A DNA stretch of 64,000 bases. Source: Dehalococcoidia bacterium (GTDB taxonomy: Bacteria; Chloroflexota; Dehalococcoidia; Lucifugimonadales; UBA2985). How positions within the stretch are numbered: position 1 is the stretch's first letter; every line of letters starts with the position of its first letter. The position numbers and the translations under genes are program-made. This document shows, piece by piece, positions 14,920 to 45,688 of the stretch. The notes beneath the pieces are model-generated. The model worked only from the letters and a program-made list of their open reading frames with translations, was not told the origin of the DNA and ran no database searches. The DNA lies in assembly GCA_965221925.1 (NCBI GenBank), contig OZ244924.1, forward strand, positions 1,161,352 to 1,225,351, in the 5' to 3' direction.

Positions 14920-16594
14920 ACGACACGACCGCACGCCGGCGGCCCTCTACGCCAGGGTCTCCAGCGACCGCCAGGACGTGGACCTGTCCGTGTCCACCCA
15001 GCTGAGAGCGCTCAGGGACTACGCCGACAAGAACGGCTACGAGATCGTCCGGGAGTACGTGGACGAAGCGGAGAGCGGGCGCGTGATGAACCGCCCCGAA
15101 TTCCTCAGGATGATGGACGAGACCAAGAAGACCAAGGCCCCTTTCGAGGAGATTTTGGTCTGGAAATTCTCCAGGTTCACCCGCAAGCGAGAGCACGCCG
15201 TCGTACTGAAGTCCATGCTCAGGCGCAAGGGCCTCCGCGTCGTCTCCATCACCGAGCAGGCCGAGGACAACCCCACGGGCAGGCTCCTGGAAGGCATCAT
15301 CGAGACCGTGGACGAGTTTTACAGTGACAATCTTGCCATGGAGGTCTTGCGCGGAATGCGCGAGGCCGCCTCCCGCGGCTTCTGAGTCGCTCCCATGGCC
15401 CCCTACGGCTACAGGAAGGTCAAGGTGCAGGACGGCCCCAAGGAGAGGCCCACCCTGGAACCGGACCCCGAAACGACCGGCATCGTCAAGCGCATCTTCG
15501 ACCTGGCCGAGTCCCGCAAGGGGATGCTGAAGATCGTCCGCATCCTCAACGACGAGGGCATCGCCAGCCCCGGGGGTAAGCTCTGGAACAAGCCCACCGT
15601 CCACAACATCCTCAGAAACGAGGCGTACTTGGGCACCCTCGTCTGGGGCAACAACGCCAAGGACGGGGCCGAGCCGGTGCGCGTGGAAAGGGCGTTCCCC
15701 GCCACCGTCTCCAAGGCCCAGTTCGACCGAGTGAACAGGATACTGCGCTCCCGCGCCCCCAAGGTCTCCCACCCCCGCAGGGTCGGAAGCACCTTCCTGC
15801 TGAGCGGCCTGGTCAAGTGCTACAGGTGCAAGAGGGCGCTCTCGGGCCGCTATTCCAGCAGGGGCACGTTCCCCTACTACGTCTGCCACTCCTTCGTAAA
15901 GCGCGCGCCCGGGTCCTGCGACTCGCCCAGGGTCGACGCCCGGCAGTTCGAGGAGCTGGGCGTCGGCCTGATTCGCTCCAACATCCTCACCGAGGGCAAC
16001 ATTCGGAGTCTGGTCAATGTCGTGGACGAGCAGATGGACGACGTGGCCGACGAGGAGCGCAAGCGGCTTGAGACCATCGAGTCGGAGCTTGCCGACGTGC
16101 GGGGCAGGCTGGGACGGCTCTACGACCTTGTGGAGACGACGACCGAGTTCAACATGGCCGACTTCGCCCATCGCATCCGAGACCACAAGGAGCGTCAGGA
16201 GCGCCTTGAGTCCGCCGCGGAGGGGGCGAGGGCAATCCTGGCTCAGCGCAGGGCGGTACTCGACGACATCAAGACGATCACCGCCTACGCCCAGGACATG
16301 AACAGGTTCCTGCAAAAGAGCGAGCTGACCGAGCGCAGGGCCTTCATCGAGACCTTCGTCAAGGAGATCGAGCTCCTGCCCGATAACGCCGTCGTCCGCT
16401 ACAGCGTGCCCATGCCCGACGACAGCTTGATTCCGGGGGGAAAAGTCCAGGAGATACCGCTGAACGGCTCGGTGGTATCTTCCGTAAAAGCTAGCCCACC
16501 AGGCTGTACTGTACTGCGAACTCGCCCGGTGAGGGCGACCTCGGCGGCGTCCGCTCCTCCTATGGGAGAGTCTTCCGGCGTAGGTATGGAGTAG
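14912..16594 (+). pseudogene. Large serine recombinase of element A, interrupted by an in-frame TGA at 15383-15385
   Basis: Resolvase domain ALYARVSSDRQDVDLSVSTQ...VWKFSRFTRKREH, then RGMREAASRGF-TGA-VAPMAPYGYRKV in the same frame (track ORFs 14912..15385 and 15395..16594). The paralog reads REFWVTSYAPYGYRRV, so the stop replaces a Trp codon. Confidence 0.85.
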
Positions 16595-17658
16595 ACGATG
16601 GCGGCCTTGCCGGGCTTGACCTCGACCTCCTTGACGAAGGAGTGGACGAACGCCTTGGTCTCGGTGAGCTCGCTGGTTTTGAGGAACTCGCTCATCTCGG
16701 CGGCGAAGGTGGCGATGGTGTCGGCGCTGTCGAGGAACTGCCGTCGCTCTGCGAGCAGCCCTCTCGCCTCCTCAGCGGCGGCCTCCAGCCTCTCTTTGCG
16801 CTCCCGGTGCTCCCTGATGCGGTCCGAGGCGTCGGCCATCTCGATGTCGGTGGTCTCGATGGCGTGCCATATCCGACCCAAGCGCCGCTTGACCTCCTCA
16901 AGCTCCTCCTCGATGGTCTGAAGCCTATGGCGCTGCTCGCGGGCGATGCCGTCCATCTCCTCGTCCACCAGCTTCACCAGGTCGCAGATGTTGCTCTCCG
17001 TGAGGATGTTCTCCCGGATGTTGCTGACGATCAGGTCCTCGAAGCGCTTAGAGTTGAGCCTGGGCGTCTTGCACATCCCCTGGCCCTTTTTGAGCAGGGA
17101 GTGGCAGACGTAGTAGGGGAACTGGCCGCTCTTGGAGTACTGGCCGGTGAGTGCCCTCTTGCAGGTCTTGCACTTGGCGATGCCGCTGAGCAGGTAGGGG
17201 CTGGAAGCCCGTCGGGGGTTCACCTTCTTGGGGGCGCGGGACCCCAGCAGCTTCTTGACCTTCCGGAACTCCCCCTTGGAGACGATGGCGGGGTGTGCGT
17301 CCTCGACCCGCACGGGCGGAGCGCCGTCCTTGGCGGTAGTCCCCCAGACCAGGGTGCCCGTGTAGGCTTCGTTGAGCAGCACGTTGTGGACGGTGGTCTT
17401 GAGCCACTGCTTTCCCCTGGGACTGGCAACGCCCTCGGCGTTGAGGGTCTTGGTCACGTCGAGGATGCTACTGCCCTGGAAGGCCATGTCGAAGATGCGC
17501 CGTACCACGGCGTCGGCGGGAGGGTCAACCTCCAGCTTGGGGCGCTTCTTCGGCCCGTCCTGGACGTAGACCCTCCTGTAACCGTAGGGGGCGTAGCTGG
17601 TGACCCAGAATTCCCTCGAAGCGGCCTCCCGCACCCCCCGCGTCACTTCTTGGGCCAA
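16399..17658 (-). pseudogene. C-terminal 418 codons of element B's large serine recombinase gene, whose 5' part is at 45266..45688
   Basis: Begins (L)AQEVTRGVREAASREFWVTSYAPYGYRRV, exactly after the resolvase domain, and is colinear with the 15395..16594 product. There is no catalytic domain upstream; attL follows instead. Confidence 0.85.
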
Positions 17659-43686: not shown

Positions 43687-45303
43687 ATGCCGGGGATCAA
43701 GGTGAAGCGCCGTAAGGCGAAGGAGAACAGGGCAGCCATATACGCCCGCGTCTCCGACCAGAGCCAGGACACGGAGGACAAGACATCCATCACGGAGCAG
43801 ACGTCCGAAATGGAGGCCCACTGCGAACGCCGGGGGCTGACCGTCGTCGCCCGCTACCAGGAGGTGGGCCAGGGCTGGTCGAAGAAGCGCCCTGAGTTCC
43901 AGAGGATGCTGGCCGACGCCAAGCGCGGACGTTTCGACACCATCGTCTGCTGGAAGTCCGACCGCCTCAGCCGGGGCATGTACCCCGCCGCCGCTCTTAT
44001 GGAGGTCGTCGAGGCCCATCAGATAGAGCTTGAAGCCGTTATGGACGCCATCGACATGAAGACCTTCGGCCTCATGGCCGCCATCGGCAAGATCGAGCTG
44101 GACAACTTCAGGGAGCGCGCGTCGATGGGCAAGCGGGGCACGGCCAAGCAGGGGCGCATCCCGGTCAGCAACATCCCCTACGGATACCGCGTCCGAGACG
44201 ACGGCAGGCCCGAGATAGTGGAGTCCGAGGCCGAGGTCGTGCGGCGCATCTACCGCATGTGCGTGAAGGACGGACTGGGGGCGCGGGTGATCGGCCAGCG
44301 GTTGATGGCCGACGGCGTTCCCGCAGCCAATAATGCCAAGCGGTGGTGGGACGGTCAGGTCTACCGCGTCCTGAGCAACGAGACCTACAAGGGAACCTGG
44401 TGGTACGGCAAGGCCCGCTACATCTCGACGGAGGACGGGATACGGGTCCACGAGAAGGACAAGGAGACGTGGATACCGGTGCCGTTCCCTGAGATAGTGG
44501 ACGAGCACACCTGGGACCTGGCGCAGAGCATCATGAAGAAGCGAAGGACCCGCTCCGGGCGCAACACCAAGATATTCTACCTGTTGCAGCACATGGTCCG
44601 GTGCACCGGGTGCGGGATGCTCATGGGATGCATGGCCACCAGGAAGCGGACAGTCAAGCGCAACGGCAAGGTCTACAAGTACGAGCTGGAGACTCCGCGC
44701 CGATACTACAAGTGCTATGGAGTGCAGCATTTCCGCACGGGATGCCGGGAGCACACGATGATCCGGGCGGAACGGCTGGAGGGCCTGGTCTGGGGCCAGG
44801 TCAAGAAGGTGATGGAGAACCCCGACCTCATCGTCGCTGGAATCGAGTCCCTGGACTCCCAGGAAGGCGAGGGGTTGGAGAAGCAGATCGCCGGGACGGA
44901 GCGCGAGCTCCAGAAGGTGCAGTTCGAGGAGGACCGGGCCATCAGGCTGTACGTGTCAGAGAAGATAACCGAGGAGCAGCTGGACCGGCAGCGCAAGTTC
45001 ATCACCGAGAGGCTGGAAACTCTGAGGGCGAGGCTGGCCGACTACCGGGCCAAGGAGACCGCCTCAATTGAGAAGCGGGCGCTGGGGGAGCACGTGGTGG
45101 AATGGGCTAACAGGGTTGGCGACGGGCTGGACGACCTGCCCCAGGAGAAGCGGCGAGACGTGCTGCGGCTGCTGCTGGACGAGGTGACCATCGACGGGGA
45201 GAACAACGTCAATCTCACGCTGGCAGTCCCAACCGAAGAGTTGGTGTCGATTGGATCACCGGTATCAAATTCTCACTGTAGAATTCGTCCACGGACTCGA
45301 TGA
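43687..45303 (+). CDS. Large serine recombinase (integrase of element C); the only uninterrupted one in the window
   Basis: AAIYARVSDQSQ...VCWKSDRLSRG (resolvase domain), a recombinase domain PYGYRVRDDGRPEI, a zinc-ribbon CTGCGMLMGC...YYKCYG and a coiled coil. ATG follows AGAGGAGGGAG. The ORF crosses attR, so its last 12 codons are flank-encoded. Confidence 0.9.
   Translation: MPGIKVKRRKAKENRAAIYARVSDQSQDTEDKTSITEQTSEMEAHCERRGLTVVARYQEVGQGWSKKRPEFQRMLADAKRGRFDTIVCWKSDRLSRGMYPAAALMEVVEAHQIELEAVMDAIDMKTFGLMAAIGKIELDNFRERASMGKRGTAKQGRIPVSNIPYGYRVRDDGRPEIVESEAEVVRRIYRMCVKDGLGARVIGQRLMADGVPAANNAKRWWDGQVYRVLSNETYKGTWWYGKARYISTEDGIRVHEKDKETWIPVPFPEIVDEHTWDLAQSIMKKRRTRSGRNTKIFYLLQHMVRCTGCGMLMGCMATRKRTVKRNGKVYKYELETPRRYYKCYGVQHFRTGCREHTMIRAERLEGLVWGQVKKVMENPDLIVAGIESLDSQEGEGLEKQIAGTERELQKVQFEEDRAIRLYVSEKITEEQLDRQRKFITERLETLRARLADYRAKETASIEKRALGEHVVEWANRVGDGLDDLPQEKRRDVLRLLLDEVTIDGENNVNLTLAVPTEELVSIGSPVSNSHCRIRPRTR
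45244..45286. other. attR of the 27.6-kb island (P arm, AA core, B' arm)
   Basis: GTGTCGATTGGATCACCGGTATC-AA-ATTCTCACTGTAGAATTC. Confidence 0.75.
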
Positions 45304-45688
45304 TGGCCTCAAGGAGCCTGCCGGTGGCGGTGTCGTCGGCCTGCTCAGTGATGGAGACGACCCGGACGCCGCGCCGCCGGAGCATGGCCTTGAAGGCGAC
45401 GGCGTGCTCTCGCTTTCGGGTGAATCTCGAGAATTTCCAAACAAGAATCTCCCTGAAAGGGGACTCCGGCTTGGCCGCCTCGTCCAGCATCCTTTGGAAC
45501 TGGGGCCTATCGGCGATGCGCCCGCTCTCGGCCTCGTCCACGTACTCGCGGGCGATCAGGTAGTCGTTCTTTTCGGCGTAGTCCCTGAGCGCCCGAAGCT
45601 GGGCGGCGATGGACAGGTCCACGTCATGGCGGTCGCTGGACACTCTTGCGTAGAGGGCCACCGGCGTCAGATTGAGTCGGTCATTCAT
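45266..45688 (-). pseudogene. N-terminal 141 codons (resolvase domain) of element B's serine recombinase gene, whose 3' part is at 16399..17658
   Basis: MNDRLNLTPVALYARVSSDRHDVDLSIAAQ...VWKFSRFTRKREH...IIESVDEFYSENL, then the frame enters the island arm and stops at 45215. ATG 45688 follows AAGGAGGA. Confidence 0.85.

Follow-up and report, generated by a model that had tools for sequence, protein, structure and literature searches.

Element C, an island of 27,610 bp that splits the integrase gene (intB) of another mobile element, is very probably an integrative island moved by its own serine integrase, IntC, with a dedicated attB site inside integrase genes of the IntB family. The window, that is, the whole stretch of DNA that was analysed (64,000 nucleotides of contig OZ244924.1 from a Dehalococcoidia bacterium), holds the following features of element C and the neighbouring elements A and B:

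14912 to 16594, plus strand: intA, a paralogous large serine recombinase gene located at the end of an ICE-like element (product 59% identical to IntB)
16399 to 17655, minus strand: C-terminal fragment of intB (second half of helix E, recombinase domain, zinc ribbon, coiled coil)
17656 to 45265: element C, the inserted island, its ends ambiguous within the TTG shared by both junctions
17659 to 17676, minus strand: P arm of element C, GATTGGATAACCGATATC; the TT core comes next, at 17658-17657 (attR)
43687 to 45303, plus strand: intC, an intact large serine recombinase gene of 538 aa (by domain profile and family alignment)
45249 to 45266, minus strand: P' arm of element C, GATACCGGTGATCCAATC, following the TT core at 45268-45267 (attL)
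45266 to 45688, minus strand: N-terminal fragment of intB (catalytic core and first half of helix E)
45709 to 45912, minus strand: a ribbon-helix-helix (RHH)-like gene of 67 aa, directly upstream of intB
46375 to 59505: body of element B (right end provisional), with a Replic_Relax relaxase-like gene at 46375-48567

Translation of the open reading frames gave an N-terminal intB fragment of 141 codons (45688 down to 45266), ending in ...VDEFYSENL, and a C-terminal fragment of 418 codons (17655 down to 16402, or to 16399 with the stop). When joined, they form an in-frame ORF of 559 codons plus stop, which encodes the large serine recombinase IntB with Pfam domains Resolvase (10-155), Recombinase (190-279) and Zn_ribbon_recom (296-355). 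This is the domain order of serine integrases (resolvase-type catalytic domain, recombinase domain, zinc ribbon), and IntC has it as well. The Resolvase match runs continuously over the joint at residue 141. The rebuilt protein aligned without a gap at L141/A142 with 13 intact homologues (78-85% identical), in all of which SVDEFYSENLAQEV at the joint is invariant, and its alignment with the product of intA is likewise uninterrupted there. Neither fragment contains a stop or frameshift over the 559 codons. The original prediction, that the two fragments join in frame through a single Leu codon, was thus borne out by the homologues. It had also placed the break exactly between the catalytic and recombinase domains; motif alignment puts it instead inside helix E of the catalytic domain, at about residue 122 of Tn3/gamma-delta resolvase. 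In its present state the N-terminal ORF reads on for 17 codons into element C (IPVIQSTPTLRLGLPA, then a stop). Homology to the IntB family stops near 16497 (GG528), and the last ~31 codons are non-native, being the antisense of the converging intA.

IntC keeps every family-invariant residue, including S23 and Q27, and its catalytic motif YARVSDQSQ is invariant throughout within its family. It is 98% identical to the homologue P0121 and to the integrases of loci L002 and L003. The integrase gene of one element is therefore interrupted by an element with an intact serine integrase of its own, as had been proposed. IntC is the sole intact integrase within the window, where intB is split and intA carries an in-frame TGA at 15383-15385 (TGG to TGA), and element C is probably active at present. 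The claim that only element C can move accordingly stands within the window; it does not extend beyond, where paralogous integrases may be encoded elsewhere. The intC ORF crosses attL, and its last 12 codons (NSHCRIRPRTR and stop) are the antisense of the target's IIESVDEFYSEN.

The ends of element C are imperfect inverted repeats around a dinucleotide repeated at both junctions, each of which holds a TTG (Leu) codon, and a continuous attB could be reconstructed. As reconstructed, attP forms an imperfect palindrome, GATTGGATAACCGATATC-TT-GATACCGGTGATCCAATC, the arms of which match at 16 of 18 positions. The P' arm, which lies within the last codons of intC, is conserved across 41 attL junctions. 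The P arm recurs at the attR junctions of L001 and L053 and is more diverged in L065, and the left ~75 nt of element C are conserved in L001, L053, L055, L057 and L065. The Leu codon reads CTG or TTG at the 41 attL junctions, its G being constant, and TTG, CTC, CTC and CTT at four attR junctions. From this variation, the crossover falls at bases one and two of the codon (TT when read along the gene, AA on the plus strand), in agreement with the AA core named previously. Conservative excision at this core would rebuild the 559-codon ORF exactly, also as predicted. Among the attL junctions recovered by pattern the core is TT in 13 and CT in 27, although the elements are closely related. Since serine integrases need identical cores in attP and attB, either the core changes easily or the cut position is misjudged by one base. 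Excision junctions, proposed earlier as a check, did not appear: JGI metagenomes and IMG/VR, scanned by pattern, yielded neither an excised circle nor a relevant attP junction, the single match of the attP scan being a chance match in an AT-rich contig. The same A/B architecture without element C is present in L082, at only 80% identity.

The occupied codon is a recurrent landing site. Our comparison, with 80 related genome regions, covered 81 loci holding IntC relatives, and all IntC relatives found belong to Dehalococcoidia/Chloroflexota genomes. At 40 of the 81 loci an antisense N-terminal fragment of the IntB family (...DEFYSENL), ending at residue ~141, lies directly against the gene of an IntC relative with 69-98% identity; these 40 loci represent about 35 Dehalococcoidia genomes. 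All junctions recovered by pattern read ...(I/V)IE(S/T)(V/I)DE(F/Y)YSENL, and over half of the 120 IntC homologues listed bear the tail predicted from antisense translation of the motif, with synonymous variation. A second site, Leu243 (...YTGTL/VWG), is occupied in nine loci, with one complete element of 10.6 kb (L052), and in four loci (L053, L055, L057, L065) one target gene is split at both sites. Nine loci of the IntC clade adjoin other sequences, so the specificity of the clade is not absolute. In the window and in L082 the targets adjoin Replic_Relax, T4CP and VirB4 genes, which identifies them as conserved genes carried by elements of conjugative or mobilisable type.

Element and target identity proved to be uncoupled. 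The integrase genes of L001, L002 and L003 are 99.8-99.9% identical to one another and 98.2-98.4% identical to intC of the window, while their target fragments are only 86-90% identical to one another and 80-81% identical to that of the window; no pair of target fragments among the loci exceeds 91% identity. Elements that are 99.8-99.9% identical thus occupy different target genes in different species-level genomes, and such near-identical integrase genes in divergent targets indicate recent and independent integrations. Repeated targeting of this recombinase position, for which the original prediction had proposed a check, was therefore found.

A chimeric assembly, or a rearrangement between inverted paralogues, could in principle produce a split gene of this kind. 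intA, whose codon-141 site is empty, converges tail-to-tail on intB, and the two form long inverted repeats (I1-I4) 30 kb apart. A homologue of the RHH-like gene also lies upstream of intA (repeat I3), its counterparts in L001 and L082 being annotated RHH_1. Furthermore, the source appears to be a long-read metagenome assembly. However, the junction and att arms recur in the 40 independent loci from ~35 assemblies, a palindromic attP and a common dinucleotide mark the junctions, and the fragments keep the strand and order of a simple insertion. We regard an artefact as extremely improbable.

Integration into a dedicated attB would proceed as follows. The attB would be a stretch of 40-50 bp inside IntB-family genes, the integrases of ICE/IME-type elements in Dehalococcoidia. 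It would encode the invariant helix-E motif SVDEFYSENL/AQEVTRG, so that its DNA would be conserved over many elements and genomes, and cutting it would damage no host gene. IntC dimers are predicted to bind attB and the palindromic attP, the latter overlapping the 3' end of intC. Both sites would be cut at the central YT dinucleotide (TT here), and rotation and religation would leave the island between the intB halves. As long as element C stays integrated, no IntB can be made; excision by IntC and a putative directionality factor would restore the intB frame exactly. The anatomy of the locus, its junctions and the repeated use of the target are direct observations; for the strand-exchange chemistry and the need for a directionality factor we draw on what is known of the serine-integrase family.

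The remainder of element C carries defence genes and a conserved backbone:

18000 to 22393, minus strand: three ORFs of 636, 562 and 203 aa, in the low-GC left end
22628 to 26065, plus strand: HmaA (Hma defence)
26025 to 28751, plus strand: Ppl-like PHP-ATPase
28761 to 29990, plus strand: Schlafen/AlbA_2 protein
~30005 to 33011, plus strand: HmaB (Hma defence), frameshifted near 30750
33656 to 36472, plus strand: HmaC (Hma defence)
36723 to 43499: conserved backbone common to L001-L003, with genes for a Schlafen-like protein and a YhcG/DUF1016 nuclease, and several small ORFs

PADLOC models strongly matched HmaA (helicase), HmaB (methylase) and HmaC (ATPase) of the putative Hma system, with E-values of 6.5e-172, 4.3e-66 and 1.3e-92, respectively; HmaB, however, is split by its frameshift, and its gene is separated from that of HmaA by two others. 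The three left-hand ORFs had no match in Pfam, PADLOC, NCBIfam or PDB. The small backbone ORFs are of 181, 242, 277 (HTH_8), 173, 223 and 66 aa, and in the YhcG/DUF1016 gene (42349-43499) a G run at ~42586 contains 2 inserted nucleotides. The frameshifts in HmaB and YhcG could reflect decay of this copy or homopolymer errors of long-read assembly. GC content falls to 51-56% in parts of the element, and its right-hand 7-12 kb are 91-96% identical to L001-L003. No relaxase or transfer domain was found among the element C ORFs scanned, which places it outside the IME definition. No phage genes were found in it either, and IntC relatives are absent from viral contigs. Defence-related cargo is present in the window element and in 6 of 10 sampled relatives. 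Besides its relaxase-like gene, the body of element B holds a TIR protein, a PLD-SNF2 helicase, an Eco57I-type methylase and AbiEi/AbiEii.

The original prediction held that excision would re-arm element B, which now appears doubtful. The catalytic motif of IntB, YARVSSDRH, keeps Y, R and S of the consensus Y-x-R-V-S-x-x-x-Q but has His for Gln (Q21H, in the motif RVSSDR(Q)D), at a position that is Q in 120 of 120 homologues. The equivalent residue of Tn3 resolvase is Q14, where all six substitutions assayed abolished recombination (PMC2794168). In addition, IntB departs from its homologues at 20 columns of 97% or higher conservation (homologue median 0, 95th percentile 7). By this residue-level comparison, the rebuilt IntB of this copy is probably catalytically impaired through Q21H, so element B is most likely immobile already and most likely inactive now.

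These deviations, together with the nonsense codon of intA and the frameshifts in HmaB and YhcG, would also fit an old, frozen insertion in which neither C nor B is mobile and all parts decay. We consider such a relic unlikely. IntC is full length with its invariant residues in place, the two att arms are undamaged and agree with those of relatives, and both intB fragments are open throughout. Nine of the 20 deviations form a single cluster at 307-321, where the sequence is similar to that of intA; this points to a patch of gene conversion and not to decay. Moreover, copies that occupy different targets in other species share 98.2-98.4% identity with C at its integrase end, which indicates that the lineage of element C moved recently.

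Another reading, close to the skin-like or active-lysogeny switch of the original prediction, takes element C as a controllable plug whose regulated excision (for example, under stress) restores IntB and licenses B to move. Excision would be scarless; of 38 full-length N-terminal fragments of split genes in other genomes, about 35 remain intact ORFs that include the catalytic motif, compatible with a later need; and the upstream RHH gene is kept alongside the N-terminal fragment. All three, however, follow equally from recent insertions. Scans of public collections for attP and of the element C ORFs gave no regulator, directionality factor or excision product, and Q21H also speaks against a restorable IntB. 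A domesticated, vertically inherited element would not be expected to occur nearly identical in different targets and species, nor would a skin-like element sit in the integrase gene of another mobile element rather than in a host gene with a stage-specific need. We know of no differentiation programme in this group of organisms, which are represented by MAGs only. A developmental or active-lysogeny switch is unnecessary as an explanation when the codon is the dedicated attB of a whole integrase clade, and we judge it improbable.

Nested integrative elements are already known, and element C is best seen as a case in which the integrase gene itself has become the dedicated attB. Serine-integrase IMEs nest in Tn5252-superfamily ICEs of Firmicutes within traG (two sites), SNF2-like and Maff2-like genes (Guedon et al. 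2017, PMC5704250; ICEscreen, PMC9585547), with tandem accretions in the same regions. As in these 'Matryoshka' composites, a serine-recombinase element disrupts a conserved gene of another integrative element, with two sites used in one target gene and up to several nested elements. Here, in contrast, the target is the host element's own integrase gene, so it is excision that the host element loses, not transfer or an accessory function; the inserted element differs further in its lack of a recognisable relaxase, its host (Dehalococcoidia, Chloroflexota) and its anti-phage cargo. In Tn6103 of C. difficile, with nested Tn6104, Tn6105 and Tn6106 (Brouwer et al. 2011, PMC3158075), serine-recombinase elements likewise lie within ORFs of a larger conjugative element with a 2-bp direct repeat at the crossover, and excision of one inner element was demonstrated. 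Its insertions were not reported within a recombinase gene, and no clade-wide dedicated target is evident there.

Gene-intervening elements such as skin/sigK (SpoIVCA), SPbeta/spsM (SprA; PMC4191935), the C. difficile skin element (PMC5025042), and the fdxN element (XisF) and other heterocyst interruption elements (PMC4874684) also split a coding sequence that is rebuilt on conservative excision of a large serine recombinase element. These elements interrupt host genes that a terminally differentiating cell needs, and several are immobilised and vertically inherited, whereas element C lies in another mobile element and is horizontally mobile. Active lysogeny at comK (Listeria phi10403S/A118-type prophage) resembles it in placing a serine-integrase element in a coding sequence with possible on/off control; element C, however, is not phage-like, and there is no evidence of regulated or reversible excision here. 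Large serine recombinase clusters with conserved intragenic attB are described in passages of Durrant et al. (2022, PMC10083194); as there, related integrases share one gene-family site, the integrase lies <500 nt from att, and the core dinucleotide is modular. The survey names a Mg-chelatase-like gene, a prolyl isomerase and competence genes as targets, and the passages searched make no mention of recombinase genes.

It is possible, and we put it forward tentatively, that this reflects an evolved strategy in which transfer-incompetent defence islands use the invariant helix-E site and the look-alike Leu243 site of ICE/IME integrase genes as a universal landing pad. Landing inside a transmissible element would be guaranteed, no host gene would be harmed, and the element would be locked until the island leaves. 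Russian-doll islands would thereby arise in Dehalococcoidia, many of them from sponges, with ICE mobility under passenger control.

When these genomes are annotated, a split recombinase gene should not simply be written off as a pseudogene. If the pattern holds, the clade offers dozens of natural integrase/attP/attB triplets of graded divergence, with two related target sites and TT/CT core variants, useful for studies of specificity change in serine integrases and for orthogonal genome-engineering tools. Integrase genes would then be not only engines but also a conserved, host-neutral landing site on which other elements specialise, giving defence islands a simple route to stack inside one another. 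One element could also immobilise another, possibly reversibly, which bears on the taming or stabilisation of conjugative elements in symbiont genomes.

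Examination of the interrupted integrase gene of element B located its two pieces, and the integrase gene carried between them by element C, at the following positions:

45688..45266, minus strand: N-terminal fragment of intB, 141 residues, ending ...VDEFYSENL
17655..16399, minus strand: C-terminal fragment of intB, 418 residues and stop, starting AQEVTRGV
43687-45303, plus strand: intC, intact, for a 538-aa large serine recombinase, in the 27,610-bp insert

The positions and translations of the fragments agree with the original prediction, and the joined pieces make up a 559-aa protein, IntB. 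Its Pfam domains are Resolvase (residues 10-155), Recombinase (190-279) and Zn_ribbon_recom (296-355), with the Resolvase match continuous through the joint. More than 4,600 homologues of IntB were found, the best being intact and 78-85% identical. In an alignment of IntB with 13 homologues, L141/A142 was gap-free and SVDEFYSENLAQEV was invariant; the paralogue intA (14912-16594, 59% identical to IntB) likewise aligned through the insertion site without a break. The proposal that the interruption falls between the catalytic and recombinase domains was approximately right only, since alignment to structures 3guv, 3g13 and 3bvp placed the break halfway along helix E, within the catalytic domain. 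The N-terminal product consists of 141 aa plus a 17-aa tail, and is deprived of half of helix E and all DNA-binding domains. Insertion of element C abolishes IntB.

On the gene strand, the island junction attL reads GAGAAT-TTG-ATACCGGTGATCCAATC, and attR reads GATTGGATAACCGATATC-TTG-GCCCAAGAA. The insert ends are inverted repeats around TT, matching at 16 of 18 positions, as is characteristic of a serine-integrase attP. The attP of element C was reconstructed as ...GGATAACCGATATC-TT-GATACCGGTGATCC..., and the repaired attB in intB as ...TACAGTGAGAAT-TT-GGCCCAAGAAGTG... The P' arm lies within the last codons of intC, whose ORF extends 12 codons into the flank. In the integrated state, the last 11 residues of IntC (Arg-rich, NSHCRIRPRTR) come from the antisense strand of the target; in the excised circle the predicted tail is a different set of 22 residues (RYRLSNQHKKIRYTWAVGLEVS). 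The same state-dependent tail applies to all relatives at the codon-141 site. A 26-nt stretch inside element C, GTAGATTTCGTCCACGGACTCGACGA (40460-40488), matches the B arm of attB (45278-45303) with 92% identity; it is contained in a 173-aa ORF (40250-40771, minus strand) and would encode ..VESVDEIY... Exact-sequence look-ups of IntC and protein P0123 returned no record.

IntC has numerous homologues, and more than half of the 120 listed carry an 11-residue tail after ...PVS, of the form (D/N/G)(S/F)x(C/S)R(T/I)RPxxR. This tail is IIESVDEFYSEN translated antisense, with synonymous variation. By scanning one genome per species, 428 relatives of IntC were found, and 80 loci were kept, all of them in Dehalococcoidia/Chloroflexota MAGs, a few with sample names typical of sponge metagenomes; a protein scan of IMG/VR viral contigs yielded no relative. 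An antisense N-terminal fragment of the IntB family, ending near residue 141, directly abuts the integrase gene in 40 of 81 loci, these 40 coming from about 35 different assemblies, and all pattern-recovered junctions read ...DE(F/Y)YSENL. Related elements thus repeatedly hit the same position of recombinase genes, a possibility that had been raised for checking. Of 38 full-length split N-terminal fragments, about 35 have kept an intact ORF and the RVSSDRQD motif; decay was seen at loci L018 (Arg to His), L037 (frameshift) and L046. Other integrase sub-clades have the C-terminal tails ...SIAGPEPITACTPCARRRGAPGASGR, ...SIAGQ...SGSR and ...RPPPSSRPRPPRRR, and no recombinase fragment was found downstream in their loci; only part of the integrase family therefore targets recombinase genes.

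The collected junctions narrowed the point of crossover. G occupies the third position of the Leu codon in all 41 attL junctions (CTG in 27 and TTG in 13 of those recovered by pattern), and the codon at four attR junctions is TTG, CTC, CTC and CTT. Since attL and attR share only the first two bases of this codon, the crossover dinucleotide is YT. A crossover at TG instead of TT was rejected, because three of the four attR junctions have no G at position 3. For the window the crossover is TT on the gene strand, in agreement with the AA core originally proposed. Closely related elements differ in their core, which is TT or CT.

In nine loci, the integrase abuts an IntB-family fragment that ends near residue 243:

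L052, 927-11570: element at the Leu243 site
L033, L053, L055, L057, L058, L065, L069 and L079, near 11520-11600: integrase junctions at the Leu243 site

The element in L052 is complete, at 10.6 kb, and its flanks join as ...YTGTL/VWGTTAKD, again with a palindromic attP; in the recombinase family the context of this site is ...NEAYTGTL/VWG. Most integrases at this site belong to a group that shares about 67% identity with IntC and has a diverged P' arm, and class-1-like arms occur there in L033 and L065. The codon-141 site, TACAGYGAGAAY-YT-GGCCCARGAR, and the Leu243 site, TACACSGGMACY-YT-GGTYTGGGGC, are alike at 14 of 24 nt; with a CT core, the Leu243 look-alike site reads TACACCGGCACC-CT-GGTCTGGGGC. 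Judged from these sequences, a sub-clade seems to have specialised on the Leu243 site as a pseudo-attB. In L053, L055, L057 and L065, a fragment of residues 141-243 is flanked by elements of both kinds, so that one recombinase gene lies in three pieces. A further split recombinase adjoins the element in L001.

Comparison of integrases with their targets bears on how recently these elements have moved. Among L001, L002 and L003 the integrase ends share 99.8-99.9% identity with one another and 98.2-98.4% with that of the window, but for the adjoining target fragments the figures are no more than 86-90% among the three loci and 80-81% against the window. Across the set, no pair of target fragments exceeds 91% identity, and no orthologous insertion is common to two loci. 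It follows that one and the same element entered different recombinase genes in different species, recently and in independent events. The attP junction of excised element C had a single match in a JGI metagenome scan, L084, which was rejected as a chance match on an unrelated AT-rich contig; a pattern scan of IMG/VR gave none. By analogy with characterised serine integrases, IntC would recombine its own attP with attB inside intB at the TT core, and excision would need IntC together with a directionality factor. As to the claim that only element C can move, it is indeed the sole element of the window with an intact integrase, and it may still move; the public data scanned yielded no attP junction.

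Excision of element C had been expected to re-arm element B. It would rebuild intB exactly, with the reading frame restored as predicted, but residue 21 of the rebuilt IntB is His, whereas it is Gln in 120 of 120 homologues. By motif alignment (Y6/R8/S10/Q14 = Y13/R15/S17/Q21), this residue corresponds to Q14 of Tn3 resolvase, at which none of the six substitutions made (A, E, R, K, N and L) left any recombination, either in vivo or in vitro; His was not among the six residues (PMC2794168). In addition, IntB departs from the family at 20 columns of at least 97% conservation; in homologues the median number is 0 and the 95th percentile 7. Nine of these 20 deviations fall in one tract, 307-321, which resembles intA and is probably a gene conversion. 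H21 and the deviant conserved columns argue that in this genome element B has probably been disarmed already. The data can be read without a regulated switch, and a rebuilt protein with H21 weakens the proposal of one.

The cargo of element C includes an Hma defence system (HmaA, HmaB and HmaC), among whose genes lie those for a Ppl-like ATPase and a Schlafen/AlbA protein, and the backbone of the element comprises conserved small ORFs and a YhcG nuclease gene. Defence-type proteins were present in six of ten sampled relatives. HmaB is frameshifted at 30740-30790 (ORFs 29636-30787 and 30540-33011) relative to models or relatives, and the YhcG/DUF1016 gene at 42586 by a 2-nt insertion relative to L001. 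Both frameshifts may be real decay or long-read homopolymer assembly error; for YhcG either is possible because the shift sits in a G run. The lowest-GC part of element C, at its left end, contains the following genes:

18000-22393, minus strand: three adjacent ORFs of 636, 562 and 203 aa

Neither these ORFs, which may constitute an undescribed cargo system, nor the conserved backbone ORFs matched Pfam, PADLOC, NCBIfam or PDB, so no candidate directionality factor can be named. The 277-aa HTH_8 and 223-aa backbone proteins of C-type elements have 46-49% identical counterparts at window positions 3-1100, in genes adjoining the conjugation genes of element A; there is a hint here that the C backbone was derived from ICE modules. 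About 150 nt near the left end (17775-17922) are conserved at 74-77% in four loci outside C-type elements:

L014, 13801-13948: copy of the 150-nt stretch
L028, 17269-17418: copy of the 150-nt stretch
L039, 15538-15685: copy of the 150-nt stretch
L041, 16948-17095: copy of the 150-nt stretch

Third-position variation suggests that this stretch encodes a small winged-helix-like ORF on the minus strand; in the window, the copy contains a 1-nt gap and lacks a clear start codon. An Rfam scan of the whole window gave no match.

Element A, left of 16497, is ICE-like, with VirB6/TrbL, VirB4/TraC, coupling-protein and Replic_Relax genes and an IS110 insertion, whose transposase gene (7712-8785, minus strand) lies among the conjugation genes. 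It ends in intA, where a TGG to TGA change at 15383-15385 creates an in-frame stop where homologues have Trp158; the integrase of element A is thus knocked out too. The codon-141 site of intA (..FYSDNLAME.., CT core) is empty. The body of element B, right of 45688, carries an RHH gene, a Replic_Relax relaxase-like gene, and genes for a TIR protein, a PLD-SNF2 helicase, an Eco57I-type methylase and AbiE. A search of the window for the right boundary of element B turned up neither an inverted copy of the intB 3' arm nor a tRNA gene. Five copies of a unit of about 130 nt, spaced 232-360 nt, lie at 60999-62304 between genes for repeat-rich Ig-like or Calx-beta surface proteins; each contains a perfect 30-nt palindrome (TGTAGGGGCGGTTCGCGAACCGCCCCTACA), and the array is not CRISPR-like.

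The genes intA and intB meet tail-to-tail (16480-16500), with 8 nt (AAAGCTAG) separating the ends of family homology, and each ORF takes its last 30 or so codons and stop from the antisense strand of the other. The same layout with both genes intact occurs in L082 (11485-11680) and L083. About a fifth of IntB homologues (about 25 of 120) have antisense-recombinase tails and others end in apparent antisense tRNA 3' ends, which indicates that B-type integrases cross over inside their own codon at about 528. The frequent facing of two such elements could reflect a third recombinase-gene target, or inversion at a palindromic core.

The nearest analogues of element C are serine-integrase IMEs inserted in conserved genes of Tn5252-type ICEs, including two traG sites (PMC5704250), and 'Matryoshka' ICE/IME composites (PMC9585547). 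Having no recognisable relaxase, element C falls outside the definition of an IME. The large-serine-recombinase intervening elements skin, SPbeta and fdxN share its rebuild-on-excision logic, but unlike element C they are inserted in host genes and have for the most part been domesticated; element C is not skin-like, being neither immobile nor in a host developmental gene. In the literature searched, nested ICE/IMEs and gene-intervening elements are described, and no serine integrase with another serine integrase gene as its dedicated attB was found, which is not proof of absence; passages of the Durrant survey text mention other target genes (PMC10083194). The choice of this attB makes sense: many co-resident mobile elements have the gene, this is the best conserved part of its coding sequence, and disruption of intB is costless to the host.
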